The notes beneath the pieces are model-generated. The model made no database searches, had not been told where the DNA came from, and was given only the letters and a program-made list of their open reading frames with translations. From a virus (Duplodnaviria; Caudoviricetes), in the IMG/VR virus record IMGVR_UViG_2765235989_000002, positions 19,135 through 83,134 of that record: a stretch of DNA of 64,000 bases. One strand, given 5' to 3'. Below, piece by piece: positions 15,618 to 62,249 of the stretch. The number at the start of each line of letters is the position of its first letter. The first letter of the stretch is position 1. Position numbers and translations under genes: made by a program.

Positions 15618-18600
15618 CGTGCTCGGGTTCCTCCTCGTGCGAGGCGCCGTAGCTGGTAGGCGTTGTCGGCGTCGATGCGTGCGGCGAGGTCCCGGTCGGT
15701 TCGGTCGGCCAGGTGCCAGTGCTGCTCGCCTACGAGGGGGCCCTGTTCGCGGATGATGACGATCCGTCCGCCGTCGGCGGCGCCGGCGGGGGTGAGGCCG
15801 ACGCCGAACCGGCCGGCGACGTCACGGAGGACGGCCGTGGCGCCGGCGCGCTTGTTCGGGCCGAGGGGGATGTACGCTTCGCCGCCGGTCGAGGGCTCGG
15901 CGAAGGTGAGCGCGCCGGCGCGGGTGGAGTAGAGCCCGGGCCGGATGCCGCCGTCCGCGTAGGAGAGGCCCTTGTTCGCGCGGGCCAGGTCGGTGAGGAA
16001 CTGGGTGGCGCGGGAGCCGAGCGCGGTTTTGATCTGGCCGGACGCTTTCGTGGCGGTGGCGATGATCTCGTCTTCTCCGAGGCCGGTGGTGTCGGCGACG
16101 GTGTGGATGCCGGTCTTGCTGGTCTTGATCGCGGCGATGATCGCAACGAGCTGCTGCACCTGCTCGGTAGTCAGGGAGTTGTTCGCGGTCTTCGCGGCGC
16201 TGTTCGCCGACGACGCCTTCTTGCCGTCCTTCACCGCGGCGGCGGCGAGCTCCATGGCCGCCTGGTCGCCCTGTGCGGCAAGCTGCTTGGCGAGGTCGCC
16301 GTACCCCTTCGCCGACAGGGTGATCAGGTTCTTCGCGAACGAGGCATCAGCGGTGTTCGCCTTGGACAGCTGGCGGGTGTAGTCCGTCAGCGACGCCTTC
16401 GCCGTGGCGGCGAGGCCGCGCAGCGCGGCCGCCATCTCGTTGAGGTACTTCGTGGACCCTCCTGCCATCTTCTTGGCGAGGGCGACCCCGTCCTTGCCCA
16501 TCGAGGCGAGGGCGTCGGCGACGTCTCCGCCGGCACGGTCCGCGACCTTCGCGAGGTCGGCGTTCCATGCCTGGGTGGCTTTGCTGTTGGCCTTGAGCTG
16601 GGTCTCGACGGTCTTCAGGTCGAAGTACTCGACGTCCTTGGTGGTGGTCTTGCCCTTCGACTTGACCTTGACCTTCTTGGTCTTGTGCCCGGCTTGCCCG
16701 GCGTCGGACGCGGAGTACAGGGAGCCGGTCTGCGGGTCGTAGCGCCAGTCCGTGACCGACCCGTCCGCGTTCCACTGGATGCGTGTGGGGTCGCCGCCGA
16801 GGCGCCGTACGGTCTCTTCGGCGATGGCGCGGGAGCGGGGCCGTTTGCCGGGGGCGAGGGGGATGTAGGACTCGCCGCCGGTCTCTTCCTCGGCCCAGAC
16901 GCGCCAGGCTCCGGCCGGGGCGATCTGTGCGACGTGGTTCTCGGGGCGGCGTGCGTTCATGCCGCCTGCGGCGTAGGCGGTGTAGATGTTGCCGTCGGCG
17001 TTCGCGCTGGCGCCGGAGAGCCACTGCTGGCCAGGCTGTTTCCCGGTGGACACGTACTTGGAGTAGGTGGTGATGGTGACGGTCTTGCTCCTGAGTCCTT
17101 CGATCGCGCGGCGCAGCGCGTCCACGCCGGCCCGCGCGCCGCCTGTGGGGGCGCTGATCGTGACGGTTTTGCCCTTGGTGGTGCGGATTTTGAAGCCGAG
17201 GGCTTCGAGCTGCTGGCGCGCTTCGGCGGTCGGGGCGCGCATGGTGAGGGTCTTGCCGTTGGTGGCCCGGAGTTTGGCCTGGATGGTCTCGAGTTCGCGG
17301 ATGGCTTCCGCGCTGGGGGCCTTGATGGGCAGGGTCTTGCCGTTGGTCTGTCCGAGCTTGCTGATCAGCGCGTCGAGTTCCGCGCGTGCGGCAGCGGTCG
17401 GGGCGGTGATCTTGTATTCGCGGGTGCCGGGGATCAGCTTGATCTGGTAGCCGATGTCCTCAAGTTCCTTCTTCGCGTCCGCGCCGAGAGCGTCGACCTT
17501 GATGGTCTTCTTGTCGGGGAACTGCTGGAACTCGGCCTGGACTGCGAGGAGCTCGGCGAGGGTGCTGTCGACGCCTTCGGTCTGGAGGAGGATCGACACC
17601 TGGCCGGGGATGAGGCCCATGGCGTCGGCGACGCCGGCCGCTTCCTTCTTGGACAGGCCGTAGCCCTCGGCCAGCTTCAGGGCAGAGGTCCGGGCGTCCT
17701 GCATTTCCTTGCGGGCGGCGGCGATCGAGTCGGGGACGCTCTTGCCCTGGGACTGGGCGAAGTCGTAGGCGGCGAGCGCGGCGGACGCGGAGCTGTCGGC
17801 GATGCTGTTGAGGGTATTGAACAGCTGCTGGCCGTTCTTCGTGGTCGTGTCGAGGGCGCCGCCGATCCCGATGAGCTGCTTGCCCCAGCCGTTGCTGCGG
17901 TCGATGCCTGCGGCCATCGCCTCGTTGGCCTGCGTGATGGCCTCGTTCACGCGGGCCTGCGCGGCCTGGAGGGAGACGCTGCCGCCGGACAGCAGGTCGA
18001 GTGCGTCCCGTAGCGCGCGGGTGCGGGAGTCGGCGTCGGCGGTCTTGTCGGCGAGCGCCGCGACCGCGTCCTTCAGCCGGTCGTACGCGGTCGTGCTGGC
18101 CGCGCCCTTAACGCCCTCGTTGAAGGACTTGGCGTCGGCGGCGGCCTTCTGGAAGTCGCCGCCGAGCCCGCCGAGGGCCTTGCGGAGGTCGTCGGCGGCC
18201 CGGCCCTGCACCGTGTACGCCTCGCTGGTCTGCCCGGTCTCCGGGTCCATGACGAGGGTCTTCTGCGCAGTCGCGGTCGCGGCGAGTTCCCGGCGGAGCT
18301 TGCTCAGGGAGCTGCCCTGATTGGTGTAGGCGTCCACGAGGGCGGACATGGGGACTTTCGCGGTGCGGGCGAGGTCGACCAAGCGCTGCTGCCCGTCGAG
18401 GGTCGTCTTGACCTTCTGCGCCATCAGGTTCTCGGCGGCGATTGCCCGGACGTTCTCGTCGACGGCGCCGTTGGATTCGCGGAGGGCCTGCGCGAGGTTG
18501 GAGATCTGCTGCTGATGCTCGGCGGCCGCTGCGGCGGCCTTCTGCTGCCGGGACGCGAGGAGACCAAGGCCGACGGTCGCTACGGTGAGGGCGACACCCC

Positions 18601-20860
18601 ACGGTCCGCCCATGGCGCCCATGAGGCCGCCCATCGCGGTCCGCAGCCCGGTGCCGGCCGCCGCGGTGACGCCGCGCAGCGCGCCGCCGAACCCGGCCGC
18701 CTGCGTGGAGGCGGTGCGGAAGCTCTGGCCCATTCGGCCGATGACGGGCACGTGAGCTTGGAGGGTGGCGACGGCCGCGCCGTAGCGGGAGAGGGACTGG
18801 CCGGAGGCGGCGGCGAGGGTCCGCTGGAGCGCCATCTGCTGGTTCAGGGACCGGAAGGAGCCGGTGAGGCGTCCGCCGACGGTGCTGGCGAGTCCTTGCG
18901 CGATGGGGCCGACGCGCCGCATCAGCAGCATCGCGAACACCGCGGTCTGCACGGGTCCGGGCAGGCTGCCGAAGAGGGAGACGAGGCCGCCGATCAGGTG
19001 CCCGAGGGGGCCGAGGAGGCCCGACAGGGTGGAGACGGCGGAGGCTGCGGTGTCGAGGGCGTAGACGGCGATGTCGAGGGCGGTGGCGGCGCCGGATCCT
19101 TCCGACGCGACGTCGCCGAGCGCACTGATGACGGGCTCGGCGCCCGCGGCGAGGTTGGTGAGGACGTCCACGACCGCTTGGCCGGCGCTGAGCAGGACGT
19201 GGAGGGCGGAGGCTACCGCGTCGCCGCCGAACTCCTCGAACGGGGTGAGCATGCGGCTGGCGGCGTCGCCGATGTCGGCGAACTGCTTGCGGGCGGCGTC
19301 CGCGATGTCCGGGCCGAACAAGGTCGCCGCGTCGTTGAGGTAGTCGAAGAAGTTTTCGATCTTCGGGGTTGCGGTGGCGAGACTGGCGGTGATGCCACGG
19401 GTGAGGTACTCCAGGCCAGGCGCGATGCCGTCGTAGATGGTCAGGCCGGTCTGCTTGGCCTGGGTCTTCAGCTGGAGCATCGCGCCGGCGAGTCCTTTGC
19501 CTTTGGCGGCGGCGATGTCGGAGGCGGCCCCGGTGTCGGATACGGCCGCCATCAGCGCGTCAAAAGAGTCGACTCCCTGGTGGGCCAGGGCGATCGCACC
19601 GGACATTGCTGGTTTGCCCATGCTCTTCTTCACCGCGGCGGTGAAGTCCTGCTGGCTCATCTCGTGCTGGGCTTTGGACAGGCCGTCGATGACGTAGCGC
19701 AGGCCCTTGAACTTCCCTTGGGCGTCCCACGCTTCGATGCCCATGGCCTTGAGACCTTTGATCATCTGCGGGGTCGGTGCGGCGAGGTTCGCGAGCATGC
19801 CGCGCAGGGTGGTGCCGGCGGTCTGGCCGAGGATGCCGGCCTTGCCGAGCATGCCGACCGCGGACGCCGCCTCGCGCATGTTCACGCCGAGCCCGTGGGC
19901 GACGGGCCCGGCGTACTTCATCGCGTAGTAGATGTCGATGATGTCGCCGGACGCGGCGTTCGCGGTCGCGGCGAGGGTGTCGGCGGCGACGCCGGCCTGG
20001 TCGGCGCCCATGCCGAACTGGTCCATCATGTCGCCGAGGTACTTGGCGGAGTCGGCGGCGTTGACCTGGGCGGCTGAGGCCAGCGTGAGGGAGGCGCGGG
20101 TGGAGGAGATCGCCTGGTCGGTGCGGAAGCCGGCCTTGGCCAGCTCGACCATCGCCTCCGCCGCATCCGCCGCGGTGGCGCCGGGCAGGGTGAGGTCGTT
20201 GCCGAGCTGCGCGGCGGTGGCGGCGGCCCGCTGCATCTGTATGCCGGTGGCGCCGGTGACGGCGCCGAACGTGTTCATCGCCTGCTGGTACTCGTTGCCG
20301 TTCTCGACGAGCTTGTCGACCCCCATCACCAGGGCGCCGCCGGACAGGAGCGCGGCGGCGCCCGTCAGCTGGTGACGGAGCCGGCCAGTCTCGTCGGCGT
20401 AGCGGCGCATGGCGAGGACACCGCGGTCGCCGATCCGGCCCATGTGCGTCGAGGCGTTCTGGGCGGCTTGTGCGAGACGGAGCAGGTCGCGGACGGCGGT
20501 GTCGATCTGCCCGGACATGCGGGCCAGGTCCCGGCCGGCGGTGCGGGACTGTGTGCCGAGGCGAGTGACGTTGCGGTCGGCAGTGCGGGCGGCGTCCGCG
20601 TACCGGTTGATGCTGCGGGCTGCGGTGCGCGTGTTGTCGCCGAGCCGGTTGATGTGCCGGGCGGCGGTGTTCGCTTCGCGGCCGAGGGCGCGGATCCGGC
20701 GCGCGGTGCTGTCGGCGTCCCGGCCGAAGCTGCGGAGTTCGGTGCGGGCGGTCCGGGCGGCGGTGCCGAGCGTGCGGGCGTGGGTGGCGGACTGCCGTAG
20801 CTCGCGGACGAGGCTGCCGCCATGCGCCCGCAGGTCGACACTGAGGTTCCAGTTCGCCAC
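15614..20860 (-). CDS. Tape measure protein (TP901-family core)
   Basis: 1748 aa, Ala-rich; AAEAMVELAKAG, MKYAGPVA, AGTTLRGML; duplicated AExxTGGExYIPL motifs. Confidence 0.95.
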   Translation of the reverse strand: MANWNLSVDLRAHGGSLVRELRQSATHARTLGTAARTARTELRSFGRDADSTARRIRALGREANTAARHINRLGDNTRTAARSINRYADAARTADRNVTRLGTQSRTAGRDLARMSGQIDTAVRDLLRLAQAAQNASTHMGRIGDRGVLAMRRYADETGRLRHQLTGAAALLSGGALVMGVDKLVENGNEYQQAMNTFGAVTGATGIQMQRAAATAAQLGNDLTLPGATAADAAEAMVELAKAGFRTDQAISSTRASLTLASAAQVNAADSAKYLGDMMDQFGMGADQAGVAADTLAATANAASGDIIDIYYAMKYAGPVAHGLGVNMREAASAVGMLGKAGILGQTAGTTLRGMLANLAAPTPQMIKGLKAMGIEAWDAQGKFKGLRYVIDGLSKAQHEMSQQDFTAAVKKSMGKPAMSGAIALAHQGVDSFDALMAAVSDTGAASDIAAAKGKGLAGAMLQLKTQAKQTGLTIYDGIAPGLEYLTRGITASLATATPKIENFFDYLNDAATLFGPDIADAARKQFADIGDAASRMLTPFEEFGGDAVASALHVLLSAGQAVVDVLTNLAAGAEPVISALGDVASEGSGAATALDIAVYALDTAASAVSTLSGLLGPLGHLIGGLVSLFGSLPGPVQTAVFAMLLMRRVGPIAQGLASTVGGRLTGSFRSLNQQMALQRTLAAASGQSLSRYGAAVATLQAHVPVIGRMGQSFRTASTQAAGFGGALRGVTAAAGTGLRTAMGGLMGAMGGPWGVALTVATVGLGLLASRQQKAAAAAAEHQQQISNLAQALRESNGAVDENVRAIAAENLMAQKVKTTLDGQQRLVDLARTAKVPMSALVDAYTNQGSSLSKLRRELAATATAQKTLVMDPETGQTSEAYTVQGRAADDLRKALGGLGGDFQKAAADAKSFNEGVKGAASTTAYDRLKDAVAALADKTADADSRTRALRDALDLLSGGSVSLQAAQARVNEAITQANEAMAAGIDRSNGWGKQLIGIGGALDTTTKNGQQLFNTLNSIADSSASAALAAYDFAQSQGKSVPDSIAAARKEMQDARTSALKLAEGYGLSKKEAAGVADAMGLIPGQVSILLQTEGVDSTLAELLAVQAEFQQFPDKKTIKVDALGADAKKELEDIGYQIKLIPGTREYKITAPTAAARAELDALISKLGQTNGKTLPIKAPSAEAIRELETIQAKLRATNGKTLTMRAPTAEARQQLEALGFKIRTTKGKTVTISAPTGGARAGVDALRRAIEGLRSKTVTITTYSKYVSTGKQPGQQWLSGASANADGNIYTAYAAGGMNARRPENHVAQIAPAGAWRVWAEEETGGESYIPLAPGKRPRSRAIAEETVRRLGGDPTRIQWNADGSVTDWRYDPQTGSLYSASDAGQAGHKTKKVKVKSKGKTTTKDVEYFDLKTVETQLKANSKATQAWNADLAKVADRAGGDVADALASMGKDGVALAKKMAGGSTKYLNEMAAALRGLAATAKASLTDYTRQLSKANTADASFAKNLITLSAKGYGDLAKQLAAQGDQAAMELAAAAVKDGKKASSANSAAKTANNSLTTEQVQQLVAIIAAIKTSKTGIHTVADTTGLGEDEIIATATKASGQIKTALGSRATQFLTDLARANKGLSYADGGIRPGLYSTRAGALTFAEPSTGGEAYIPLGPNKRAGATAVLRDVAGRFGVGLTPAGAADGGRIVIIREQGPLVGEQHWHLADRTDRDLAARIDADNAYQLRRLARGGTRAR

Positions 20861-25796: not shown

Positions 25797-26849
25797 TCAG
25801 TCCTCCAGGACAGTGGCCGTGATGTGGATGTCCGGTACGTACAGCACCGGCATGCCCACTGCGGCGCCGCGTGTGTAGACCTGCACCGGGTTGTCCTCGA
25901 CCTTGGTGACAATGACGATGCCGGGGGCCTGCTCGGCGGTGAGGGCCGGGTTGGAGCCGGAGGAGAGCTGGATGCCTTCGGCAGTCAGCCCGTACTGGGT
26001 CTCGGCCCACTGGTTCGGAGCGATACCCGGCGTCATGATCCACAGGTTGTCGGGGAGGACCCGCACGTAGTTGCCTTCGTCGTCGTACACCTGGACGTCG
26101 TACTCGACGATCGGCGGCAGGTTGTAGCGGGCGCGGACGGCCGAGACCTGGTCCGGGGCGAGCATTGCCGTGGGGGTCTGGCCGCCGATCGGCGTGTTGT
26201 AGTACGAGGCCCGGTACTCCTGGTTCGCGGCGAGGAACGAGCGGGCCCGGCGGGAGGTGATGACCCGGGACGGGACCGGCGCGCCGGTGTCGCGCAGGTA
26301 GTTCATCCACGCCATCTCGTCGGTGAGGGGGGTGGCGTGGGCCTCGTTCCACGGGATCGCGGCGGTGGGCCGGTTCGCGGCGGGCACGTTCCAGTCGACG
26401 TCGAGGCCGTTGCCGGGCAGGTCGACGACTCCGGTGGCGAGGATTTTCCCGGCGGCGATCTCCTGGGCGGTCTTGATGGACTCGAAGTGCCGCTCGATGT
26501 CGTCGTACAGCTTCTCGATGAACTCGGCGGCGTCCTGGCCGTGCGAGATGTTGAAGAGGATGGTCTCCATCTCGCTGATGGGGAGGGTCTGGCCGAGCGG
26601 GGGCAGCAGGCCCTCGTTGACGACCCTGGACGCGTGGCGAGTCGCGATGGCGGTCGGCGCGTCGTAGACGCGGAACTTCGCCGCGTTCACGCGCCGCTTG
26701 CTGGAGCTGGTGCGGAACTTGATGTTGTTGATGTTCCGCTCGGGGACGATCTGCTGGGTGAGCAGGTAGTCCGCGGGGGTGGTCAGTTCGCGGACGAACG
26801 CGTTGATCTCGGCGGCGTCGAGCTCCCGCAGGAGCAGGTCGAGGTCCAT
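25797..26849 (-). CDS. Major capsid protein (phage capsid E-like)
   Basis: AKFRVYDAPT, LPPLGQTLPISE, VDWNVP, AVGMPVL; 350 aa. Confidence 0.9.
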   Translation of the reverse strand: MDLDLLLRELDAAEINAFVRELTTPADYLLTQQIVPERNINNIKFRTSSSKRRVNAAKFRVYDAPTAIATRHASRVVNEGLLPPLGQTLPISEMETILFNISHGQDAAEFIEKLYDDIERHFESIKTAQEIAAGKILATGVVDLPGNGLDVDWNVPAANRPTAAIPWNEAHATPLTDEMAWMNYLRDTGAPVPSRVITSRRARSFLAANQEYRASYYNTPIGGQTPTAMLAPDQVSAVRARYNLPPIVEYDVQVYDDEGNYVRVLPDNLWIMTPGIAPNQWAETQYGLTAEGIQLSSGSNPALTAEQAPGIVIVTKVEDNPVQVYTRGAAVGMPVLYVPDIHITATVLED

Positions 26850-28568: not shown

Positions 28569-30455
28569 TCACGGGTTGCCCCCGCTCCCCTCCGGCTGGC
28601 CGGCCGGGCCCTGCCCCTGGGGGTCTTGGGGCGGCTGTACACCGGGCTGGGGCGGCAGTTGGATCGGCGGTACGGGTGGTTGTTCGGGGGCTTTGCGGCC
28701 AAGGAAGTCGGCGACTTCGTCGGGGTTGCCGAGCGCGTCGGCCAGATCGCGTGCCTGCGCGAAGGCCCGGGACTGGATCTGTTCGATCTCCTTCTCCATG
28801 TCGTCGATGGGGAAGCCGGCCTCGGTCAGCATCCGCACCGCGGTCTCAAGGGAGAGGACACCCTTCTCGACGCCGGTCGTTACCTGCTGGAGGACAGCGT
28901 CCCGGTCGGTGGGCGTGTACGGGCCGTAGATGAGCTTGGCGGGCACGGGGGTGATGCCGGCCCAGTCGGGGTGCTGCCCGGCGAGGTGGAGTCGCTGTAC
29001 GAACTTCAGCAGGAGGGTGTTCTTGTGGTCACGCGCGAGGCGCATGTCGTCCATGAGGGAGTCCAGCGGGCCGAGGCTGAGGGCGAGGGCGTAGCCGGAG
29101 GGCACCTTCGAGGGGTCCATGGTGCCGAGGGAGACGGCGGGGAGGCGTACGACGGTCGCGGCCCGCTCGGACAGGTCGTGGCGTTGGTGGCGTAGCTCTT
29201 GGAGTTGGGGGGCGGTGTTGAGGGTGTCCATGCGGCCGTTCTCGCCGAGGGTGAAGACCATGCCTGGGGCGACGGCGTGCTGGCCGCTGCCGGTGATGTT
29301 CTTCCCGGCGAGGCCGATGATCGGGGATCCGGTGGTGGCGGAGGCGCGGGCGCTGTCGGTGTCGGTGCCCTGGAGTTCGTCGAAGACCTGGAGGACCGCG
29401 GCGAGAGAGGACTGGCCCCAGTGCTCCTCGGCCGGGGGGACGGTGTTGGGGACGTGGATCACCGGGATGAAGTCGATGAGGAGGTCCAGGTGGTCGAGGA
29501 CTTCCCCGTCGGAGCGGGTCGCGAACGTTGCTTTCTCGAGCGGCAGGGAGTCGACGTCGGCAGGGGCCCGGATGTCGCCGAGTTCCCAGGTCGCGTCGGT
29601 GAGGTAGCACGCCCGGTAGGACGGCTTGTCGGACCACGGGTAGATGCGGCTGATGGCGCCGCTGTCGGGGTCGGCGACGTCCCCCTTACCGAGGCTGGGG
29701 ACGGGCGGCTCGCCGTCGGCGGGCTCGGTCATGACGGGGGCTCGGACGGGCCGGCTGTTGCGGTCGACGCCGGATGCGGTCGCGGGCCGGATCCAGTCGA
29801 GTTCGTAGGTGATGCGGCGCAGGCGGGCAGGGAGGTTCCGCTGCTTGTCCTCTGGCAGCTCCCACGCGAAGTGGATCCGCTGCGGGTACTCGCCGCCGTC
29901 GTCGTCTTCTCCGATGACGGGGAAGTAGAAGCCGGGGTCGGAGACCCGCAGGGTGACGCGTTCCTTCGCGGGGTCCCAGGCGAGCCGGTAGACGGCGTCG
30001 CCGAGGGAGACGGCTTTGCGTTCGGCCTGCTTCATCCGCATGGGCAGCAGTTCGGTCTCGGCCCAGTCCCGCAGAAGGTCCTGGACGCGTTCCGCCGCCG
30101 CCTGCCCCCCGTCGGCTTCGTCGCTGGCGGCGTGTTCGGCGCCGGGGACGGTGATGGTCTGCCCGCGGCCCATGACGTGAGCGACCAGGGTGTCGACGAA
30201 CATGCTGGGGTCGCCGTACTCGCGCCGGTCCCGCTCGGTGCTGCCGCCGTGGATCTCGGCGAGTTCAGCGGCCTGGTTGGAGTCGTACGCGGTGAACAGC
30301 TTGTATGCGGCGAGGCGCCGTTCGTCGGCGGCTGGCACCCAGGAGGCGTACGCCTCGGGGAAGGCCCGCCGGTTGGGCATGCCGAGATGGTCGCTGTAGA
30401 CCGGCTTGAAGTTGAGGCGCGACCAGGCGTCGATGAGCACGGTCTTGAGGCCCAC
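28569..30455 (-). CDS. Portal protein
   Basis: SLGDAVYRLAWD, FIPVIHVPN, WGQSSL, PSGYAL; between terL and scaffold. Confidence 0.88.
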   Translation of the reverse strand: MGLKTVLIDAWSRLNFKPVYSDHLGMPNRRAFPEAYASWVPAADERRLAAYKLFTAYDSNQAAELAEIHGGSTERDRREYGDPSMFVDTLVAHVMGRGQTITVPGAEHAASDEADGGQAAAERVQDLLRDWAETELLPMRMKQAERKAVSLGDAVYRLAWDPAKERVTLRVSDPGFYFPVIGEDDDGGEYPQRIHFAWELPEDKQRNLPARLRRITYELDWIRPATASGVDRNSRPVRAPVMTEPADGEPPVPSLGKGDVADPDSGAISRIYPWSDKPSYRACYLTDATWELGDIRAPADVDSLPLEKATFATRSDGEVLDHLDLLIDFIPVIHVPNTVPPAEEHWGQSSLAAVLQVFDELQGTDTDSARASATTGSPIIGLAGKNITGSGQHAVAPGMVFTLGENGRMDTLNTAPQLQELRHQRHDLSERAATVVRLPAVSLGTMDPSKVPSGYALALSLGPLDSLMDDMRLARDHKNTLLLKFVQRLHLAGQHPDWAGITPVPAKLIYGPYTPTDRDAVLQQVTTGVEKGVLSLETAVRMLTEAGFPIDDMEKEIEQIQSRAFAQARDLADALGNPDEVADFLGRKAPEQPPVPPIQLPPQPGVQPPQDPQGQGPAGQPEGSGGNP

Positions 30456-30769
30456 AAAGTTCCCTCCGTATAGCTGGCCCCGCGCCGCATCCAGCGTACG
30501 AGCGTTCCGAAGGTACGTTCCCCCGGCTCTCAACCGGCCGCGTCATTCACCCATTCGAGTTACAGGGCGAAGGGGTACCCCTCGAAAAGGCGCCCCATTG
30601 GAGGGCGTTGTGGGGATTCGCTCACGTACGCAAGGCATCGGGGGTCCGTAGTCGCATTCGGGAGGTCGTAGAATCTGGATTGGGCGTTCACACCACACGC
30701 TTCCTGATCGTCCCCCGGCCGCAATTGCCCGGGGGAACGCCTGCGGGTTGACCGGATCAGGAGGATCAG

Positions 30770-31078: not shown

Positions 31079-32716
31079 TCAGCGCCGTCCGCTGAGACGG
31101 TGGTCTGCATACTTTGCCGTCTGTACGGCAGCTGAAGCTGGATCTGCCAGTTCGGTGAGTCCGTGTACGCAGGCGTCCATGCGGTCTGGGGAGTCCATGC
31201 CGGGGATCCAGGTGACAAGTTGTCCCTCAAGGCGCGGGAACTCGCCGACGTGGTGGACAAGGCCCTGGGCGTACAGCTGGGCGATTGGTTCGGCGCGCAG
31301 GCGTTTCCCCTGCTTGGCGTGCACTTCGATGATGGCTGGCATCAACATGCCAGCGGTCTCGCCCGCCTCGGTGAGCTCCTTCCAGGCTTGGCGGATGATC
31401 TGCTTGGCCATGTCGCCGCCGAAGTTCGACTCGACGACGATCGCGTCCGCGCGTAGCTCGATGGCGAGGCGGCAGGCCGCGTGTCCCCAGGTGTCTGCTC
31501 CCATCCGGTCGGAGCGGTCGGCGAGCACGTACAGCTGCCCTGTGTTGTCGCGCCCGCCGGCCCAGAGGCCGGTTTCGTCGTTGACGTCGTCATCCCCGCC
31601 CGCGGTGTCCACGGCGACGACGATGCGGGTGAGGTCGACGCCTCGGAACTGCATGGGGGTGAGCCGGTTGTCAGTGATCCACGGCCACTGCCATACGCCG
31701 CCCTCGAGCGGGCGAGGCTTCTGCTGGTAAAGGGACCACCAGACGCGTTCGCCGACCGCGCGCCGGATCTTCTCGAGGGCCTTGCGTCCGTACCGGAGCG
31801 GCCAGAGGGGTTCTCCGACAGGACGGCCGAGGGCGTCGTCTTCACTGTCGGCGATGGCCGGCAGGTCGAGGATGGTCCAGTCGGAGGCGTCTTCGCCTTC
31901 GAGGATGCGGCCGGCGAGGTCTTGCTCGTGCCAGCGTGTCTGGATGACCAGGATGCTGCCGCCGGGCTCGATGCGAGTGTTGAGGACGGACGTCCACCAG
32001 TCCCAGAGGCGGCGGCGCATGGTGGGCGATTCGGCGTCGGCGGCGTCCTTGATGGGGTCGTCGACGATCGCGAGGTGCGCGCCCTTGCCGGTGAGTCCTC
32101 CGCCGACGCCGGCGGTGACGAGGCCGCCGTCGAGCCGGTTACCGGTGTCGGGGTCGGCGAGGTCGAATCGGTTGGCGGCTTTGGATCCGGCGTGGAGGGC
32201 GAGGCCGAGCTGGGGTCCGTAGGTGTTGATGGCGTCGCGGATCCACCGGCCGTGGTCGTCGGCGAGGTCGGCTGAGTAGGAGGCGATCATCACCCGGTGG
32301 TCGGGGTGCCGCGACAGGTACCACAGGGGTGCCCAGCGCGCGGCGCGGCGGGACTTTCCGTGCCGTGGGGGCATGGTGATGAGGACTTTGCGGGGGCGGC
32401 CGGCGGCGATGTCGCGGAACACCTGGTCGATGAGGTCCAGGTGCCGGGCTTGTTTCTCCTTGCCGTCGGTGAGGATCGCGGACATGGAGCCCGGGGATCG
32501 CTTGAGGGCCATGTCCCGTTCGACGCCAGCGAGAATGGTCCGTATCTCGGGGCTGGCTGCGATTGCGATACGGCGTCGCTGGGCCCGGTTCAGACGCCGG
32601 TACTGGGCGACCAGCTTGAGGAACTCCTCTGCCTCGGCGGCGATGTCGACGTCGGGCTGTTGTCCCGCGTCTTGGGCCAGGGGCGGGTCAGGCGTCTTCA
32701 TCGGTGGTGTCGCCAT
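31079..32716 (-). CDS. terL: Terminase large subunit
   Basis: MPPRHGKS Walker A, IVDDPIKD Walker B, QTRWHEQDL, AVDTA, SPDRMDA nuclease motifs. Confidence 0.95.
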   Translation of the reverse strand: MATPPMKTPDPPLAQDAGQQPDVDIAAEAEEFLKLVAQYRRLNRAQRRRIAIAASPEIRTILAGVERDMALKRSPGSMSAILTDGKEKQARHLDLIDQVFRDIAAGRPRKVLITMPPRHGKSRRAARWAPLWYLSRHPDHRVMIASYSADLADDHGRWIRDAINTYGPQLGLALHAGSKAANRFDLADPDTGNRLDGGLVTAGVGGGLTGKGAHLAIVDDPIKDAADAESPTMRRRLWDWWTSVLNTRIEPGGSILVIQTRWHEQDLAGRILEGEDASDWTILDLPAIADSEDDALGRPVGEPLWPLRYGRKALEKIRRAVGERVWWSLYQQKPRPLEGGVWQWPWITDNRLTPMQFRGVDLTRIVVAVDTAGGDDDVNDETGLWAGGRDNTGQLYVLADRSDRMGADTWGHAACRLAIELRADAIVVESNFGGDMAKQIIRQAWKELTEAGETAGMLMPAIIEVHAKQGKRLRAEPIAQLYAQGLVHHVGEFPRLEGQLVTWIPGMDSPDRMDACVHGLTELADPASAAVQTAKYADHRLSGRR

Positions 32717-33200
32717 CATCAGCGTCGTGCGGGTCCTCGGGGATGTCGTCGTCCTCAAGGTCGGGTTCACCCGCGGTGCGGATGAGGTCGCGCAGTTCGG
32801 CAATCGCGACCGGGCCGACCGGGACCGCTCCTCCGTCGGGCCCGGACAGCTCGGTCTTGGCGGGCATGTCGAGTCCGTTCAGCTTTGCCTGCCGGTCCAT
32901 GAGCTTGAGGACGAGCTCGGCGGCCTTGGTGTCGCCGCCAGCGGTAGCGTTCTCCCAGTGGGCTTCGAGGAGTGCTTCGAGGCGTTCGTTCGCTTCCTGC
33001 CGGTACACGCTGGCTTCGGCGGCCTGCTCGTCGCGGCGTTCCTCAATGGCGCGGATGAAGTCCTTGGTGGCGGCGCCGCGGCTGGTGTAGCCGAGGGCGA
33101 GGATGCGGGGGTCTTCGAACCGGACGCCGGCGCGGCGTAGGCGGATGAGTTCTGCGCGGCGGGCGGCGACTTCGGCTTGCTCGGCTTTGGAGGCTGGCAT
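32688..33200 (-). CDS. terS: Terminase small subunit
   Basis: HTH-like N-terminus, RQAKLNGLDMPAKTELSGPDGG; directly upstream of terL. Confidence 0.85.
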   Translation of the reverse strand: MPASKAEQAEVAARRAELIRLRRAGVRFEDPRILALGYTSRGAATKDFIRAIEERRDEQAAEASVYRQEANERLEALLEAHWENATAGGDTKAAELVLKLMDRQAKLNGLDMPAKTELSGPDGGAVPVGPVAIAELRDLIRTAGEPDLEDDDIPEDPHDADDGDTTDEDA

Positions 33201-54615: not shown

Positions 54616-54833
54616 GGCGGCGGGTGTCGAAGCGGGAGATCCTGCGCCGTCTGGAAGCCCTCGAGGCACTCCTCAACCAGCCGCCTGCCCGGATCGCCGG
54701 TCAGACGGCCCTGCCGATGGGGATGATCGGGCATCACACGTACGAGGGCCCCGGGGCATGCCGGGCGGATCTGTTCGGCACTGTGTGCGGGGCGCACCGG
54801 GACGCGCACGAGTTCGTCGACGACGGCCGGTAG
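54612..54833 (+). CDS. Small His/Cys protein
   Basis: GTGA coupling; HTY...C...CG..RDAH. Confidence 0.55.
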   Translation: MRRRVSKREILRRLEALEALLNQPPARIAGQTALPMGMIGHHTYEGPGACRADLFGTVCGAHRDAHEFVDDGR

Positions 54834-55237
54834 AGGGCTGCGGGCGGCCGGTGTCGAGGCCGCGCGTGATGGCGAGTGTCGGCACCGGCCGCGGTCTTGA
54901 GGCCGTGACGAGAGACGGGCGTCCGGGGGCGCGGGCCACGCTGCGAAACCCACCATGGTGTGTTGCGGCCCGCGCCCCCGTAACGTCGTTCCGTCACCGT
55001 TCTCCCCGGGCGGAGACTGCCTGACCGTTGTTCAAAACACGCATTCCGAACTGGCCGGGACAATCTCCCCTCGGGGTACACATCAAGACCACTGATGATG
55101 GAACTGGCAGGTCAGCGGCCCAGCACCCACATCCTGACCTAACCCGTTCCGGTTATCTCCGGGCCGTTTTTCCACCCAAAAACCGCATGAATATTTACAC
55201 TCCACACGGCAATAGATGCCCACTACACGGGGGGAAC

Positions 55238-56083
55238 GTGAAGCAAGACCCGCTCCGTCAGCTCCTCACCACACGCCGATCCGCGATCGAACCCGAAACC
55301 CACGGCCTCACCCGCCCCACCGGCCAAGGCCGCCGCGCCGCCGGCCTCTCCCAACACCAGGTCGACCATCTCACCGACCGAGCCATCAACACCTACCAAC
55401 GCCTCGAGTCCGGGAACTACCTGAACCCGCCCCTCGACTACCTCCGCGACATCGCCGTCCTGTTCGACATGAACGAACACGAGTGGATCGCCCTCCACCG
55501 CTACGCCCGCGGCGAAGACCCGCCCGGCCCCCTCAGCCAGGACTCTGGCTACCACGTCGCGGGCGCCTGGCAGCACGCCGTCAACTCCATCGGCGAAATG
55601 GCCTACCTCACGGATGCCTCCTGGAACGTCCTCGCCGCCAACGCCGAGTGGGCCGGCTTGTTCCCCAGCGGCCGTACCCCCGACAACACCATGCGGTGGA
55701 TGCTGCTCTCTGCCGAGGCCCGGCACGTCCTGACCGACTGGAAAACCGCGTGGGCGCCCCTCATCCTGCCCCAGCTCCGTGTCGCCCTCGCCACCCGCCA
55801 GGACGACACCCTCCGCGCCATCGAACGCGACGTCCTCGCCGACCCGGTCACCCGCAGCCTGTACGACGAGCAGGGCGTCTACGTGCACCCCAACGGCGAC
55901 CAACGGCCCATCCACCACGCCGTCCACGGGCCCGGCTGGGTCACCATGTGCTCCGCACAACCCGAAGGCAGCACCGGCTCCCGGCTGATGATCCTCCTGT
56001 ATCAGCCCGGCGCCCGCCGTCCCCGGCCGCAGACCCCACTCCGGGCCTGCCCGCCAGGCCCGCGCACCCCCACACGCCCCTGA
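55238..56083 (+). CDS. MmyB-family regulator (XRE HTH + PAS-like ligand-binding domain)
   Basis: GRRAAGLSQHQV...YQRLESG; AYLTDASWNVLAAN; NTMRWMLL. Confidence 0.88.
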   Translation: MKQDPLRQLLTTRRSAIEPETHGLTRPTGQGRRAAGLSQHQVDHLTDRAINTYQRLESGNYLNPPLDYLRDIAVLFDMNEHEWIALHRYARGEDPPGPLSQDSGYHVAGAWQHAVNSIGEMAYLTDASWNVLAANAEWAGLFPSGRTPDNTMRWMLLSAEARHVLTDWKTAWAPLILPQLRVALATRQDDTLRAIERDVLADPVTRSLYDEQGVYVHPNGDQRPIHHAVHGPGWVTMCSAQPEGSTGSRLMILLYQPGARRPRPQTPLRACPPGPRTPTRP

Positions 56084-56334
56084 CTCCAGCACATTGAGCC
56101 CCCACGCCTCGAACAGCAGGACCGCTCAAGGCACGGCCAACGGCCGGCATGCTCCGGAACGGGAGAACCGGAGCGGAAGCAGAGGAACAGCGCACCCTGG
56201 CCACCGCCAGGCCAGGGCACCGCAGTCGAATCCGCATTCCTCCCCCTACAGGGGAACACGGCACACGATTTGGACGTACGGTTTGGGCCACCCCCGCACG
56301 CAGACCAGCCATGCCCAGCCCTGCCGGAGGACAC

Positions 56335-57378
56335 ATGCCCGCCTACGTCACCACACCCCAGATCGTGCTCCCCCCGCACAAGATCACCACAGCCGAGATC
56401 CTCGACGACATCCGGGCACGGCACGCCACCCACCCACGGCTGCCCGTCATCCTCCGCGCCATCACCAACTGCGGCGTCACCACACGCCACTTCACCCGGC
56501 CCCTCGACGCCCCCACCGTCACCGGCACCGCCGACGTCCAGGAACGCACCCGGGCCGCCTTCAACGACTGCCTCACCATGGCCACCGAAGCCGCCACCCA
56601 GGCCCTCGCCCACGCCGGCCTCACCCCGAGCGACATCGACGCGGTCGTCACCTCCCACGCCACCGGCTGGTCCGTCCCCAATCTCGACGTCCACCTCACC
56701 GCCGCCCTCGGCCTCCCGCCGACCGTGCGACGCCTCCCCATGACCACCCTCGCCTGCGCCGGCGGCGCCCACGCCCTCATAAGGGCCGCCGACCACGTCA
56801 CCGCTCACCCCACGGCCCGGGTCCTCGTCGTCGCCACCGAAGCCCTGTCGACGTCGTACAACCACGCAGACACCAGCATCCCCAGCATGATCTACAAGGC
56901 ACTGTTCGCGGACTCCGCCGCCGCAGCCATCGTCACCGCCGAGCTCCTCGAGCCCGGGATCCGGATCGACGACACCTTCGAGTACTGGCTCCCCGGCAGC
57001 CTCGACCGGTACGAAGGCCGCCTCGACCAGACCGGCCTCCACTTCGACTCCACCCGCCAAGCCCCCGCCGCCGCGGGCCAGTCCATGCCCGCCGTCCTCA
57101 ACTGGCTCGGCCACAACCACATCATCGACTGGGCCGTCATCCACCCCGGCGGGCCGTCCATCATCCGCGACGTCGCCCACGCCCTCGGCCTCGACGACCA
57201 CGACGCCCAGCACTCGTACGACTCCCTCACCGAGTGCGGCAACCTCGGCGGCCCCGCGGTCCTGGACGTCCTCGCCCGCACCCACACCACACCGCCCGCG
57301 CACGGCACGACCGGCGTTCTGGCCGCGTTCGGCCCCGGCTTCACCGTGTCCGCGATCCGCGGCACCTGGCAGGCGTGA
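56335..57378 (+). CDS. Type III polyketide synthase (chalcone synthase superfamily)
   Basis: Catalytic triad LACAGG / IHPGG / GNLGG; ALFADSAAA; AFGPGF; GGAGG RBS. Confidence 0.93.
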   Translation: MPAYVTTPQIVLPPHKITTAEILDDIRARHATHPRLPVILRAITNCGVTTRHFTRPLDAPTVTGTADVQERTRAAFNDCLTMATEAATQALAHAGLTPSDIDAVVTSHATGWSVPNLDVHLTAALGLPPTVRRLPMTTLACAGGAHALIRAADHVTAHPTARVLVVATEALSTSYNHADTSIPSMIYKALFADSAAAAIVTAELLEPGIRIDDTFEYWLPGSLDRYEGRLDQTGLHFDSTRQAPAAAGQSMPAVLNWLGHNHIIDWAVIHPGGPSIIRDVAHALGLDDHDAQHSYDSLTECGNLGGPAVLDVLARTHTTPPAHGTTGVLAAFGPGFTVSAIRGTWQA

Positions 57379-58055: not shown

Positions 58056-58119
58056 GACGGTGCTCCCCTTCGGTCCGGCGGCGATGGGGGCCTTTGCTGC
58101 CCCCCTCACCTCGATGACT

Positions 58120-58905: not shown

Positions 58906-61176
58906 TTACCAACGCATGCCGAGTGCGTCGAGGGCCGTGATTCGCTCGGCGCTGATGCCGCCCTTTTTGACTCCACTGCGCAACTGTCTCTGGTACAGGA
59001 TCCAGGATCCGAGTTTGGTGCCGTCTGGTGCGGTGTAGGAGTGCTTGACGTGCAGGTGGCCGTGCTTGGCGTGGAACTGCTGCGCCGCGGCGTACATCTG
59101 CCACCAGCGGACGTCGATCTTGTCCCAGACCATGCCGAGCTCGTCGAGCGCGGACTTCTGCTCCAGCGGCAGGGTGCCTCTGCCGTGCTTGACGCGCTGG
59201 GTGGTGAGCCAGGCACCGAGTTTGTGCCCGCTGGGCGTGCTGTACTCACGCGGTACCCGCAGGTGGCCGTGCTCGCGATGGTAGAGGCGGGCCGCGGTGA
59301 TGCCGGCGGCCCATGCTTCTTCGACGCGGTTCGGGTCCCATTTGAAGCCGAGAGCCTCCAGCGCTGCTTGCCTTTCGGGGGCCAGTTTTCCGCTACGGCG
59401 TAGGGATCGCTGCTTGCTGAGCCAAATCCCCAAGCTCACCCCGTCCGCGGTGCGGTGCGACTGCGGTACGTTCAGGTGCCCGTGCTCGGCCCGGTAGGAA
59501 GCGGCGGTGTCGAGGTTCACGGCGAACGCCTCGGCACTGGGATCCCAGACCATGCCGATCGCGGTGAGCTTCTCGACGCGGTCTGTACTGAGACGGCCGC
59601 GTCGGAATTCGTGGCGGCGTTGGGCGATCCAGCCCCCCAGGCGGAAGCCGTGCTCTGTGCGGTGCTCGGCGGGCACGAGCAGGTGCTGGTGTTCTTCGTA
59701 ATAGCGCGCGGCTACGTAGTAGCCCTCCCACCAGGGGTTGGTGCTCTGGCGCACGAGCATCAGCTTCACCTGGGCGAGGAAATCTTGGCTCGTGCCGGGC
59801 GGTAGGACGAATGTGATCTTATCGGGTAGTTGTGGGTTACTTGCGGAGTTCTTGCTCCGTTGGCTGTCGAGTGCGACCCCCAGTGGCTCATCGTGAGCGC
59901 GCAGAGCACGCACGACCTGCCACAGGGTCTCGTAGTCGCCAGGGTCCAAGTCACCGATCTCGCCGTCTTCTTCGGGCACCACCAGCGGCACGATGATCGT
60001 TGAGGGGCCTGGCACCTGCGGATCCCGGCGCAGCGCTCGCCCGACCGCTTGGGTGATATCCACGGCTGATCTTTTGGGATGTCCGAACAGGACTGCGTCT
60101 ACTGCTGGTAGGTCGACGCCTTCGCTCAGGCATCGCGCGCTGCTGATGACCGTCCAGCCGTGGGTGTGCCGCAGTCGGTTGAGGATGCTGCCCCTGGCCC
60201 GGTGGTCCATCTTGCCGTGGATGTGTGCCGCGTAGAGGTGGTCCTGGTCAGTGGGCGAGGTGCGGGATACAGCGTGTTTCAGGGTGCGGGCGAACTCGGC
60301 GGCCGCGTCGACGCGGGGGTGGTAGGTCAAGGCGCGTCGGATACCGTACTGCTGGCGGGCGCGGCCTAGGGCGACTTGGGCGACGACGGTTTGCAGCGAC
60401 GGTGCCCCCAGCGCATCCACGTATTCGATGCCCTCGTCGGCCAGCAGCTTACGTGCCTCGGCGTCCCGGACGCCGATCACCGCGATGCGGTAGTCCTCCA
60501 GGTATCCATCGGTGATGCCCTGCGCGAAGGAATACCGGCCCAGGACCGGGCCGAACACGGTTTCGTCGTCCATGCCGACCATCGGCAGCGAGTCGATGCC
60601 GGCGTTGATGCGCAGGTCCTCACGAGGGGTGGCTGTCATGAACAGCCGGCGCCGGGCGGGGAGCCGGCCCGGCTGGAGGATCTTGCGGGTGGTGAAGTCG
60701 GCCCGGCCGGCGAGGTGGTGAGCTTCGTCGAGGACCAGGAGGTCCAGCGGGCTGGTCGCAAGGACCGCGTCCGCCAGCCGGACCGCGGAAAGGTACGTGC
60801 ACAGCACCAGCCGGATCCCGGGTGCAGACGGCCGGCGCAACCAGACGGTGATGTCCTCGGTGCGAGTGGTGACCGGCACGGGCAGGTCGTGGGTGTGTAC
60901 GGCGGCATCCGCGACGGTGTCGTCGCTGCATACCGCCAGCGCATCCAGCGGCTGGCGGGCGTTGCGGGACCAGGAGGCCAGGGTCTGTGCGACCAGGGAG
61001 AGGGAAGGCGCGAGGACGGCGACGGTCCCGCCGCCGGGCAGGAGCTGCTCGGCGGAGCGCTGGGCGACGATCGTCTTGCCGCTGCCGCAGGCCATGTGGA
61101 TCTGGCCGTTCCCGCCGTCCCGTAGCCCTCGCCATACGCTGCTGACGATCTCTTGTTGGTAGGGGCGTAATTTCAT
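58906..61176 (-). CDS. SF2 DEAD/DEAH helicase with C-terminal helicase-associated (HA) repeats, TtrA-like
   Basis: LRPYQ, MACGSGKT, LDEAHH, MTATP, LSEGVD, QAVGRALR; four HGHLxV...LGxW...LGMxW repeats; TTA at codon 3. Confidence 0.9.
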   Translation of the reverse strand: MKLRPYQQEIVSSVWRGLRDGGNGQIHMACGSGKTIVAQRSAEQLLPGGGTVAVLAPSLSLVAQTLASWSRNARQPLDALAVCSDDTVADAAVHTHDLPVPVTTRTEDITVWLRRPSAPGIRLVLCTYLSAVRLADAVLATSPLDLLVLDEAHHLAGRADFTTRKILQPGRLPARRRLFMTATPREDLRINAGIDSLPMVGMDDETVFGPVLGRYSFAQGITDGYLEDYRIAVIGVRDAEARKLLADEGIEYVDALGAPSLQTVVAQVALGRARQQYGIRRALTYHPRVDAAAEFARTLKHAVSRTSPTDQDHLYAAHIHGKMDHRARGSILNRLRHTHGWTVISSARCLSEGVDLPAVDAVLFGHPKRSAVDITQAVGRALRRDPQVPGPSTIIVPLVVPEEDGEIGDLDPGDYETLWQVVRALRAHDEPLGVALDSQRSKNSASNPQLPDKITFVLPPGTSQDFLAQVKLMLVRQSTNPWWEGYYVAARYYEEHQHLLVPAEHRTEHGFRLGGWIAQRRHEFRRGRLSTDRVEKLTAIGMVWDPSAEAFAVNLDTAASYRAEHGHLNVPQSHRTADGVSLGIWLSKQRSLRRSGKLAPERQAALEALGFKWDPNRVEEAWAAGITAARLYHREHGHLRVPREYSTPSGHKLGAWLTTQRVKHGRGTLPLEQKSALDELGMVWDKIDVRWWQMYAAAQQFHAKHGHLHVKHSYTAPDGTKLGSWILYQRQLRSGVKKGGISAERITALDALGMRW

Positions 61177-61229
61177 ACGTTGACGAATCCTTTGATCTGG
61201 CGAGAACGAGGGCGTCGGCAGGGCCGGGT

Positions 61230-62249
61230 TCACGCGTCGTTGTTGTCGAGGTCGGCGTAGTCGATGCGGGCGCCGGTCAGCGCGGCGGCGCGGGCGCACA
61301 CCTGCCGGTGCCAGGACGCCGTCCAGCCGTGCCAGCCCTCCGACCAGCTCGTCCCGCGCACGCCGGCCTTGTACTCGTCGTCGTCGCGGTAGGTGATCAG
61401 CGTGTCGTCGTCCGCGTCCTCAAGGCCGGCGACCAGCTTGGCGACCGCGGCGTCAGTTGCCGCCTTCAGTTCGGCGATCTCGGGCCGGACACGGCCGGGG
61501 ACCGGGTCGCGGCCCTGCTCCCAGGAGCGCAGCGTGCGCGGGTTCACGCCGAGCCGATTGGCCATGTCGTCGCCCGTCAGGCCCAGGTACTCCCGGGCCG
61601 TGCGCAGCTCTGCGGGGGTCAGCGGGTCGTCTTCCGCCAGGTCGTCGCGCAGGCCCCGCAGGTAGGCGCCCAGGCCGTGGCAGACCGCTACCGGGCTGTC
61701 CCCGCAGTCGACGAGGCCGGCCAGGATCTCCCGCTCGATCTCGTCCAGGCGGTCGTCGGTGGTGTCGGCGGTGATGTCGTGCTCCTCGACCTCAAAGCCG
61801 TTGACGGCGCCGTCGATGTCCCAGATCCCGACCAGGTCACTGTCGGGGAAGCCCTGGTCCGCCTCGCCCCTGTAGTTGCTCCCCGACGACAGACCGAGGA
61901 TGCTCTCGATCTCCTCATCGGCGGCGCGGGCGTCGTCGTCCCACTGGGCGACGGTGTTGTTGCCGTCCCAGACCGCTTCCGTCCCGGCAATGACGAGGTC
62001 GGCGAGGGGGGCGATCTGCCGCATGACCCGGTTCACGGCGTCCGCGGTCAGGACCGGGATCGGGTAGCGGATGTCCAGACCGTGGTAGACGGTGCCCGGG
62101 ACCGCGTTGCCGACCTCGGAGTTGTAGGTGGCGGACAGCGTCTCGTTCTGGGTGTCGAGTTCGATGTAGGCGGGCTGGGGTTCGGTCTGTCCGTCGTAGT
62201 GGCGGTACAGCTCGGTCGCTGCGGTGCAGTCGATGATGGTGACGCTCAC
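61230..62249 (-). CDS. Acidic N-terminal domain fused to an XRE/DUF1870 (Aca2/YdiL-like) HTH
   Basis: LTPAELRTAREYLGLT...LGVNPRTLRSWEQGRDPVP...LITYR. Confidence 0.8.
   Translation of the reverse strand: MSVTIIDCTAATELYRHYDGQTEPQPAYIELDTQNETLSATYNSEVGNAVPGTVYHGLDIRYPIPVLTADAVNRVMRQIAPLADLVIAGTEAVWDGNNTVAQWDDDARAADEEIESILGLSSGSNYRGEADQGFPDSDLVGIWDIDGAVNGFEVEEHDITADTTDDRLDEIEREILAGLVDCGDSPVAVCHGLGAYLRGLRDDLAEDDPLTPAELRTAREYLGLTGDDMANRLGVNPRTLRSWEQGRDPVPGRVRPEIAELKAATDAAVAKLVAGLEDADDDTLITYRDDDEYKAGVRGTSWSEGWHGWTASWHRQVCARAAALTGARIDYADLDNNDA

Follow-up and report, generated by a model that had tools for sequence, protein, structure and literature searches.

A vioB–vioA-type regulator and type III polyketide synthase pair as probable accessory cargo of a pZL12-like Streptomyces phage-plasmid

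Introduction

The virus record IMGVR_UViG_2765235989_000002 of IMG/VR (Duplodnaviria; Caudoviricetes) is a single contig of 83,134 bp, and the stretch analysed here, referred to as the window, is its final 64 kb (64,000 nucleotides, positions 19,135 to 83,134 of the record). The window carries two adjacent genes on the same strand, one coding for a predicted MmyB-type transcriptional regulator and the other for a stand-alone type III polyketide synthase (PKS). Sequence comparisons indicate that this pair is very probably a cassette of the vioB–vioA type, as known from the violapyrone cluster of Streptomyces somaliensis, and that it is carried as accessory cargo by a Streptomyces phage-plasmid of the pZL12 kind. 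An earlier sequence-only reading of the window had seen in the same pair a possible small-molecule signalling circuit of the phage.

Structure of the gene pair

The open reading frame (ORF) of the synthase (56149-57378, plus strand) matches PF00195 (2.8e-20, 73.2 bits) and PF02797 (6e-11, 43 bits), both above the cut-off of 27. The source-called product is 347 amino acids (aa) long (P0001, 100% identity), and the gene is therefore placed at 56335-57378, with an ATG start preceded by GGAGGA. The triad Cys141/His270/Asn303 aligns with that of THNS and is invariant in 24 relatives and in all 175 rows of the family. The intact Cys-His-Asn enzyme described from the sequence alone is thus borne out, as is the gene order: the regulator gene comes first, on the same strand, and is separated from the PKS gene by 251 bp. 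No P450, tailoring or transporter domain was detected in the ten neighbouring ORFs tested, in agreement with the earlier description of a pair that has no such genes nearby. Three control ORFs on the opposite strand or in another frame over this stretch, together with the antisense neighbour at 56892-58109, matched no Pfam family. Neither gene of the pair contains a TTA codon. The residues L190, Y226 and S239 of the window PKS correspond to L190, Y229 and S242 of VioA, three of the four VioA residues that have been mutated, with numbering read from the pCQ3 homologue. Among the 175 family rows, the same Leu, Tyr and Ser are found in 174, 152 and 175, respectively.

The regulator ORF (55028/55238-56083, plus strand) matches PF17765 (4.5e-14, 53.3 bits; cut-off 26.3), and its XRE-type helix-turn-helix (HTH) is matched weakly by HTH_31 (1.9e-4, below the cut-off). 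Because a G-rich ribosome-binding site, GGGGGGAA, precedes the GTG at 55238 and because alignments with homologues begin at residue 1 of the 281-aa form, the start that had been chosen from the sequence alone appears to be right. An AF2 model of the protein (pLDDT 81.4) gave MltR (3PXP) as the sole Foldseek matches with E<=0.001 (6.5e-9 over 286 columns). A profile search against the PDB returned weak matches only, with 3PXP at E 0.0019, and a plain sequence search against the PDB returned none. MmyB/MltR regulators combine an XRE HTH with a PAS-like ligand domain (3PXP; PMC3406030), as does the window regulator, for which 3PXP is the full-length top match in Foldseek. Furthermore, MltR has been crystallised with myristic acid (PMC3406030). 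By likeness to this family, the window regulator is a predicted MmyB-type ligand sensor that may bind a lipid-like ligand. It differs from the described members of the family in its layout. In S. coelicolor, 15 of 16 MmyB-type paralogues are divergent from their target gene (PMC3406030), an arrangement that is typical of, although not strictly defining for, MmyB-like regulators, whereas the window regulator is in tandem and co-directional with the PKS gene, as are its counterparts in 75 of 80 genomic loci. In addition, MmyB is described as an activator (PMC3406030), whereas VioB is a repressor according to the available part of PMC4924298.

The violapyrone cluster as the closest known system

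The closest known system is the violapyrone cluster of S. somaliensis SCSIO ZH66, and what is said of it here follows the accessible parts of two papers (PMC4924298; PMC5898002). The cluster consists only of vioA, coding for a type III PKS of 350 aa, and vioB, coding for an 'XRE-family regulator' of 272 aa, and lies on a circular plasmid of ~85 kb (PMC4924298). Deletion of vioA abolished the production of violapyrone B, and deletions of flanking ORFs were without effect. Violapyrone B rose about eightfold when vioB was deleted, which makes VioB a negative regulator (PMC4924298). VioA, which groups with Cpz6, DpyA and Gcs, takes beta-keto acids bound to coenzyme A (CoA) or to acyl carrier protein, together with methyl- or ethylmalonyl-CoA (PMC5898002). 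Production is severely impaired by the I174A substitution of VioA and is also impaired by mutations of Y229 and S242, and the violapyrones themselves are diffusible and mildly antibacterial against Gram-positive bacteria (PMC4924298; PMC5898002). vioAB loci have been reported from 21 genomes, 'most in a linear plasmid' (PMC5898002).

VioA is 95% identical to pCQ3.110c (WP_012840496.1) (PMC4924298), and homologues at this level are found on pCQ3 (NC_013449.1) and pCQ4 (NC_019307.1). The pCQ3.110c gene, located at NC_013449.1 84153-85205, codes for a protein 59.7% identical to the window PKS. The gene content of pCQ3 includes a major capsid protein, HK97 gp10, a tail protein and TraA/TraB. Because pCQ3, with its 95% homologue of VioA, carries virion genes, the published 'plasmid-situated' cluster appears to sit on a phage-plasmid like that of the record. 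Like the window pair, the vio cluster has a PKS of ~350 aa with an XRE/MmyB-type regulator of ~275 aa directly upstream on the same strand, consists of two genes only, is carried by an ~85-kb plasmid with phage virion genes, and has its synthase in the same PKS clade (100/99). The arrangement that characterises a violapyrone cassette, a vioB-type regulator immediately upstream and no other cluster genes, is thus present at the window locus. The regulators of the window and of pCQ3 are 58.0% identical, and the latter likewise contains PF17765. The intergenic gap is 251 bp in the window versus 360 bp in pCQ3.

The same pair occurs on pZL12 (GQ919031), a plasmid-phage established by experiment, where pZL12.99 (a regulator with PF17765) precedes pZL12.100 (a type III PKS 53.6% identical to the window PKS by tblastn). 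The synthases of pZL12 and pSLE1 have been annotated as RppA-like, and the available part of that report describes the pSLE1 enzyme as lacking a surrounding cluster and does not discuss a pairing with the regulator (PMC4487206). In a search of the phage collection, plasmid-phage ZL12 was the only phage with a homologous PKS. A survey of actinobacterial prophages encountered type III PKSs only in prophages on plasmids (PMC10023795).

Phylogeny of the synthase

The sequence-only reading had called for a phylogenetic comparison of the synthase with Gcs, RppA, PhlD and SrsA. A careful IQ-TREE phylogeny of 40 rows, with THNS and Pks11-like sequences as the root, places the window PKS in a clade of 5 rows (100/100), all on contigs of 83-99 kb. 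Its sister group (90/77) is a 13-row clade (98/99) with pCQ3, pZL12 and syntenic chromosomal copies among its members. The window PKS and pCQ3.110c share one 21-row clade (100/99), with Gcs, THNS and Pks11-like sequences outside it. The Gcs representative and a copy from a Kitasatospora phage-plasmid form part of a neighbouring 7-row group within a 30-row clade (100/99). The nearest characterised enzyme is therefore VioA, followed by Gcs, and neither RppA nor PhlD nor SrsA is nearest.

Known synthases other than VioA were rejected as identities of the window PKS. Its best scores against the PDB are 190.8 bits for THNS (1U0M) and 170.2 bits for Gcs (3V7I). A true RppA/THNS orthologue, which coexists with the cassette in one genome, reaches 698 bits, and THNS is an outgroup in the tree. 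The adjacent P450 gene that goes with RppA is not found nearby. Like that of RppA/THNS, the PhlD label was rejected with the help of NCBIfam, in which the window PKS matches no equivalog and comes closest to DpgA (100 bits; cut-off 425). SrsA/Pks11-like sequences fall into the outgroup, and the score against Pks11 is 437 bits for a Pks11/SrsA-like paralogue. Against Gcs, a representative of the Gcs cluster reaches 546 bits, and it belongs to a separate clade. Nevertheless, Gcs (3V7I) is a stand-alone pyrone synthase like the window PKS and shares with it the motifs EALSTxY and GN(L/R)GG, whereas the N-terminal insertion of Gcs is missing from the window PKS. Germicidins, the products of Gcs, affect germination. 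RppA/THNS (1U0M), the usual annotation for these genes, has the type III PKS fold and the triad in common with the window PKS, whereas Cys106 and Tyr224 of THNS align with Ala and Gly.

Distribution of the cassette

The plasmid collection contains 65 records with a relative of the PKS and 64 with a relative of the regulator. The counts that follow cover the matches listed, namely 60 records of each, and records beyond these are outside the intersection. The major head protein of the window has homologues at 48-91% identity in 34 Streptomycetaceae plasmids, 33 of which measure 84.8-94.1 kb; an Actinoalloteichus match (31.6%) was left out of this count. Among the matches listed, a PKS is present in 26 of these 34 plasmids with the pZL12-type capsid, and 25 of the 26 have the regulator adjacent. 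Of the 38 listed plasmids whose PKS is at least 43% identical to that of the window, 34 have the regulator gene 72-1235 bp upstream of it in the same orientation. Proteins at least 70% identical (n=23) are encoded on contigs of 86-99 kb (14), on one contig of 121 kb and on shorter contigs (8), and on none of chromosome size. In IMG/VR, a relative of the PKS occurs on 23 contigs, 17 of them of 85-99 kb.

The cassette is also found in chromosomes. The figures for genomes refer to the best 80 of 141 stretches that encode a PKS relative in species-representative genomes, with contig size class serving only as a proxy for phage-plasmid versus chromosome: 49 loci lie on contigs of >103 kb, 17 on contigs of 84-103 kb and 14 on fragments. 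In 75 of the 80, the regulator gene directly precedes the PKS gene on the same strand, at a distance of 62-372 bp. Twenty-four loci (18 on >103-kb contigs, 6 on fragments) have housekeeping neighbours in common, namely acyl-CoA dehydrogenase, TetR, deformylase, MurT/GatD and asparagine synthase. An origin of the chromosomal copies as integrated prophages was considered and rejected, because tblastn with the called proteins of the element detected phage genes on the 84-103 kb contigs only; the 49 large-contig loci gave a single weak match (28% to the helicase). The earlier reading had conceded that a pair that is mostly chromosomal, and on the phage only incidentally, would count against it. 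The pair is indeed chromosomal for the greater part in species-representative genomes (49 of 80 loci), but its presence in 26 of 34 pZL12-type plasmids is not incidental.

The cassette appears to move between these settings. Contig classes interleave on a FastTree phylogeny of the PKS with 178 rows, where well-supported branches force at least 17 changes of class; for a second FastTree, L014 and L032 were removed as odd ORFs from a crude gene caller. The window PKS itself falls into a 26-row clade, of which 16 members come from contigs of 83-103 kb, 9 from fragments and 1 from a larger contig. Across 25 plasmids, capsid identity and PKS identity are uncorrelated (rho 0.23, p 0.28). Such a lack of correlation would be expected if the cassette is swappable cargo.

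Individual plasmids and genomes add several observations. The 88,279-bp plasmid NZ_CP109524.1 of S. anulatus has a capsid protein 91.4% identical to that of the window and a PKS only 58.9% identical, so that either the cassette allele or the virion module has been swapped between backbones. A circular Kitasatospora phage-plasmid of 91,397 bp (L086, NZ_CP108485.1) has the pair, with a PKS of 43.5% identity, ~2 kb from its terminase gene. The association therefore crosses genera and the position of the cassette is not fixed. Five plasmids of 88-102 kb (NZ_CP108279.1, NZ_CP108705.1, NZ_CP109578.1, NZ_CP109332.1 and NZ_CP046906.1) contain the pair and no homologue of the window capsid at E<=1e-30; they perhaps represent a second lineage of phage-plasmids, or else plain plasmids, that share this cargo. 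Each of two genomes, Streptomyces sp. A1277 (L004 and L077) and S. blastmyceticus (L044 and L075), has two diverged cassette copies, those of A1277 being on a 73-kb contig (74% identity) and a 189-kb contig (55%). A conserved protein of ~262 aa with no Pfam family is encoded immediately 3' of the PKS gene in 22 loci (e.g. L009:11104-11892). All of these are on large contigs or fragments, and the copies on contigs of phage-plasmid size lack it. On the S. anulatus linear plasmids NZ_CP108641.1 (L085, 3494-5138) and NZ_CP109342.1, the gene of a more distant type III PKS (~41% identical) overlaps convergently with a gene for a ScbR-family autoregulator receptor, which is a further pairing of a synthase with a small-molecule receptor. 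P0121, a protein of 4818 aa, contains 12 separate stretches that resemble type III PKSs (27% identity, 522.7 bits) and is perhaps a tandem multi-domain protein or a mis-joined one.

Regulatory DNA around the two genes

When 76 regions upstream of the regulator gene were aligned, the blocks ..TTTTTCCACCCAAAAAC.. and GAATATTTACACT.. were found to be common to chromosomal and phage-plasmid copies, including that of the window, and 10-mers of these blocks recur in up to 30 of the 76 loci. A dyad at window positions 55160-55180 (columns in L004-L083) has an outer base that co-varies, reading GTTT..N..AAAC in the window and many copies on contigs of phage-plasmid size and CTTT..N..AAAG in many chromosomal copies; it is possibly an operator or a hairpin. 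Between the two genes, where the window has an inverted repeat (Table 1), relatives retain a dyad with another sequence (e.g. CCCTGATCAGGG, CTCCGGTTGTCGGAG). In addition, a TACGTT/TACGGT/TAGGTT column located ~40-60 nt 5' of the PKS start is kept in most of the aligned intergenic regions. Because both promoter regions are conserved in chromosomal and phage-plasmid copies, the unit appears to move with its regulatory DNA. A scan for consensus sigma-70 promoters found none, and Rfam gave no match over 54800-57600. Neither the k-mers that the two promoter regions share nor palindrome scans disclosed a recurrent motif or an operator linking the cassette to other phage promoters.

The phage-plasmid and its other genes

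The record is linear according to IMG/VR and 92% complete according to CheckV (83,134 bp). The phage setting that had been assumed for the pair holds, as the genes for the tape measure, large terminase, major head and portal proteins were all identified with PHROGs (Table 1). The first 19 kb of the record contain partition genes, with ParB_N at 30.1 bits, HTH_ParB at 26.6 and a ParA-type CbiA domain at 28.4, all above the cut-off. The record thus combines the tailed-phage virion genes and the partition system that characterise pZL12-like phage-plasmids of ~85-95 kb. Two further genes of the element lie before the window, one for a WhiB-domain protein (L092:13629-14564, PF02467, 1.7e-7) and one for a C5 cytosine DNA methylase (L092:15155-17059). 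The former is noteworthy in view of the control that wblA exerts over the vio genes of S. somaliensis.

Table 1 Features of the window, with coordinates counted from its first nucleotide
Feature	Coordinates	Strand	Evidence or remark
vioB-like regulator, XRE HTH and MmyB-type PAS-like ligand-binding domain (predicted), 281 aa	55238..56083	+	PF17765
vioA-like type III polyketide synthase, 347 aa	56335..57378	+	PF00195 and PF02797, triad, 59.7% to pCQ3.110c
AT-rich conserved region 5' of the regulator gene, probable promoter/operator	55078..55237	+	76-region alignment
Intergenic inverted repeat TCCCCCTACAGGGGA, perhaps a terminator or an operator	56241..56255	+	Dyad in relatives
-10-like hexamer TACGGT, putative separate PKS promoter	56277..56282	+	Intergenic alignment
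Tail tape measure protein	15614..20860	-	phrog_10780, 4.5e-121; phage context
Major head protein	25797..26849	-	phrog_29, 4.6e-48; phage context
Portal protein	28569..30533	-	phrog_64, 1.4e-14; phage context
Terminase large subunit	31079..32803	-	phrog_38, 1.9e-107; phage context
DNA helicase, convergent neighbour 3' of the PKS gene	58906..61299	-	phrog_16, 1.4e-44

Proposed mechanism and alternative explanations

In a cassette of the vioB–vioA type, the MmyB-type regulator would repress the PKS gene at that gene's own promoter, as VioB does in S. somaliensis, and a hydrophobic ligand in the PAS-like domain would probably relieve or modulate the repression, as its family suggests. The stand-alone PKS would condense a fatty-acid-derived beta-ketoacyl starter with methyl- or ethylmalonyl-CoA, and the chain would then be lactonised to 3-alkyl-4-hydroxy-6-alkyl-alpha-pyrones of the violapyrone type, both steps being those of VioA. 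A tailoring or export gene would be unnecessary. Because the published pyrones are diffusible and antibacterial, the most economical benefit would be a regulated pyrone that aids the lysogen in competition and hence the maintenance of the element.

Several points weigh against this explanation. The benefit of the cassette to the phage-plasmid is pure inference, and because 8 of the 34 plasmids with the same capsid type are without the PKS among the matches listed, the enzyme is dispensable. Identities to the vio proteins are ~60% for the PKS and 58% for the regulator, and the window PKS belongs to a sister subclade. The cavity residue I174 of VioA is replaced by Ser in the window PKS. Among the 175 family rows, Val is the commonest residue there (76), followed by Ser (55), Ile (20), Ala (17) and Thr (6), and the product may therefore differ in chain length or type. 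Moreover, repression, product and antibacterial activity have been measured in S. somaliensis only.

The circuit proposed in the sequence-only reading, in which a pyrone made by lysogens is read by the MmyB-type regulator and sets lysis or lysogeny, transfer or host germination, much as in arbitrium or pyrone quorum-sensing systems, is very unlikely. One part of that proposal stands, namely that of a self-contained module of regulator and synthase on a phage element, since VioB controls vioA in the homologous system; a role in lysis, lysogeny, transfer or germination found no support. The proposal accords with a ligand-binding fold that matches MltR, crystallised with myristic acid, with the tight linkage of the synthase to a receptor-like regulator in 75 of 80 loci, with the retention of the cassette in 26 of the 34 pZL12-type capsid plasmids and on 23 IMG/VR contigs, and with the fact that Gcs, the next characterised relative, makes germicidins. 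However, the same cassette with the same promoters occurs in chromosomes, next to housekeeping genes in 24 of the 80 loci, and its logic is therefore not phage-specific. In the available part of PMC4924298, the sole tested role of VioB is the pathway-specific repression of vioA. Furthermore, no operator motif is common to the cassette and other phage promoters, and PKS identity is not tracked by capsid identity. The diversity of position 174 and of the regulators speaks for possible 'dialects', and in an elaborated form of the proposal, phage-plasmids of the pZL12 kind would keep vioBA because the pyrone, besides being an antibiotic, is a diffusible cue that lysogens make and VioB reads (unless VioB reads a lipid cue of the host), with element-specific 'dialects' coordinating induction, transfer or exclusion between related elements and copies in chromosomes. 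Such dialects would rest on the position-174 alleles (S, V, I, A, T) and on the variety of the regulators (47-59% identity), and we give this form, too, only a slim chance.

Even less probable is a modifier of host development, in which the pyrone would act on spores like germicidin, or the cassette would be wired into the Wbl network and time the element to the host life cycle. Deletion of wblA in S. somaliensis lowered vioB transcripts and raised those of vioA, yet WblA did not bind the vio promoters in an electrophoretic mobility shift assay, according to the available part of the report (PMC4924298). The WhiB-domain protein of the element itself and the Gcs-containing clade, which is the closest characterised one after VioA, would fit such a role, whereas the accessible parts of the violapyrone papers report no germination phenotype, and neither gene has the TTA codons mentioned above. 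The least credible explanation is that the pair is a neutral or decaying passenger, a mobile two-gene unit that came from a chromosome and is without function for the element. The interleaving of contig classes on the PKS tree, with its forced changes, and the related plasmids that lack the PKS are compatible with it, but neither gene is disrupted and the triad does not vary across the 175 family rows. In addition, the clade of the window PKS is mostly on contigs of phage-plasmid size, and the diverged copy on the Kitasatospora phage-plasmid argues for long retention. A vioB–vioA-type cassette carried as accessory cargo is thus preferred over these explanations.

Conclusions

Because the chemistry and regulation of the cassette have already been published, the window copy adds little alone. 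What is new relative to the violapyrone papers is that the cluster rides on phage-plasmids and that its regulator is of the MmyB type, a predicted ligand sensor. The terms 'phage', 'prophage', 'capsid', 'MmyB' and 'ligand' are absent from the accessible text of the 2016 paper (PMC4924298), as are 'phage' and 'MmyB' from that of the 2018 paper (PMC5898002). Searches by title and abstract (MmyB with type III PKS; violapyrone with phage) found no literature linking vioAB, the MmyB family and phage-plasmids, and a search of the Streptomyces plasmid-phage literature found nothing on the PKS beyond pSLE1. It is also new that about three quarters of the plasmids with the pZL12-type capsid carry the cassette and that the unit, promoters included, moves between chromosomes and phage-plasmids. 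The cassette thus offers a tractable case of a temperate phage with a regulated small-molecule synthase in an antibiotic-producing genus. The reason for its retention, be it as a weapon, a signal or a developmental cue, is testable in existing strains, namely those with pZL12 or pCQ3 and S. somaliensis.

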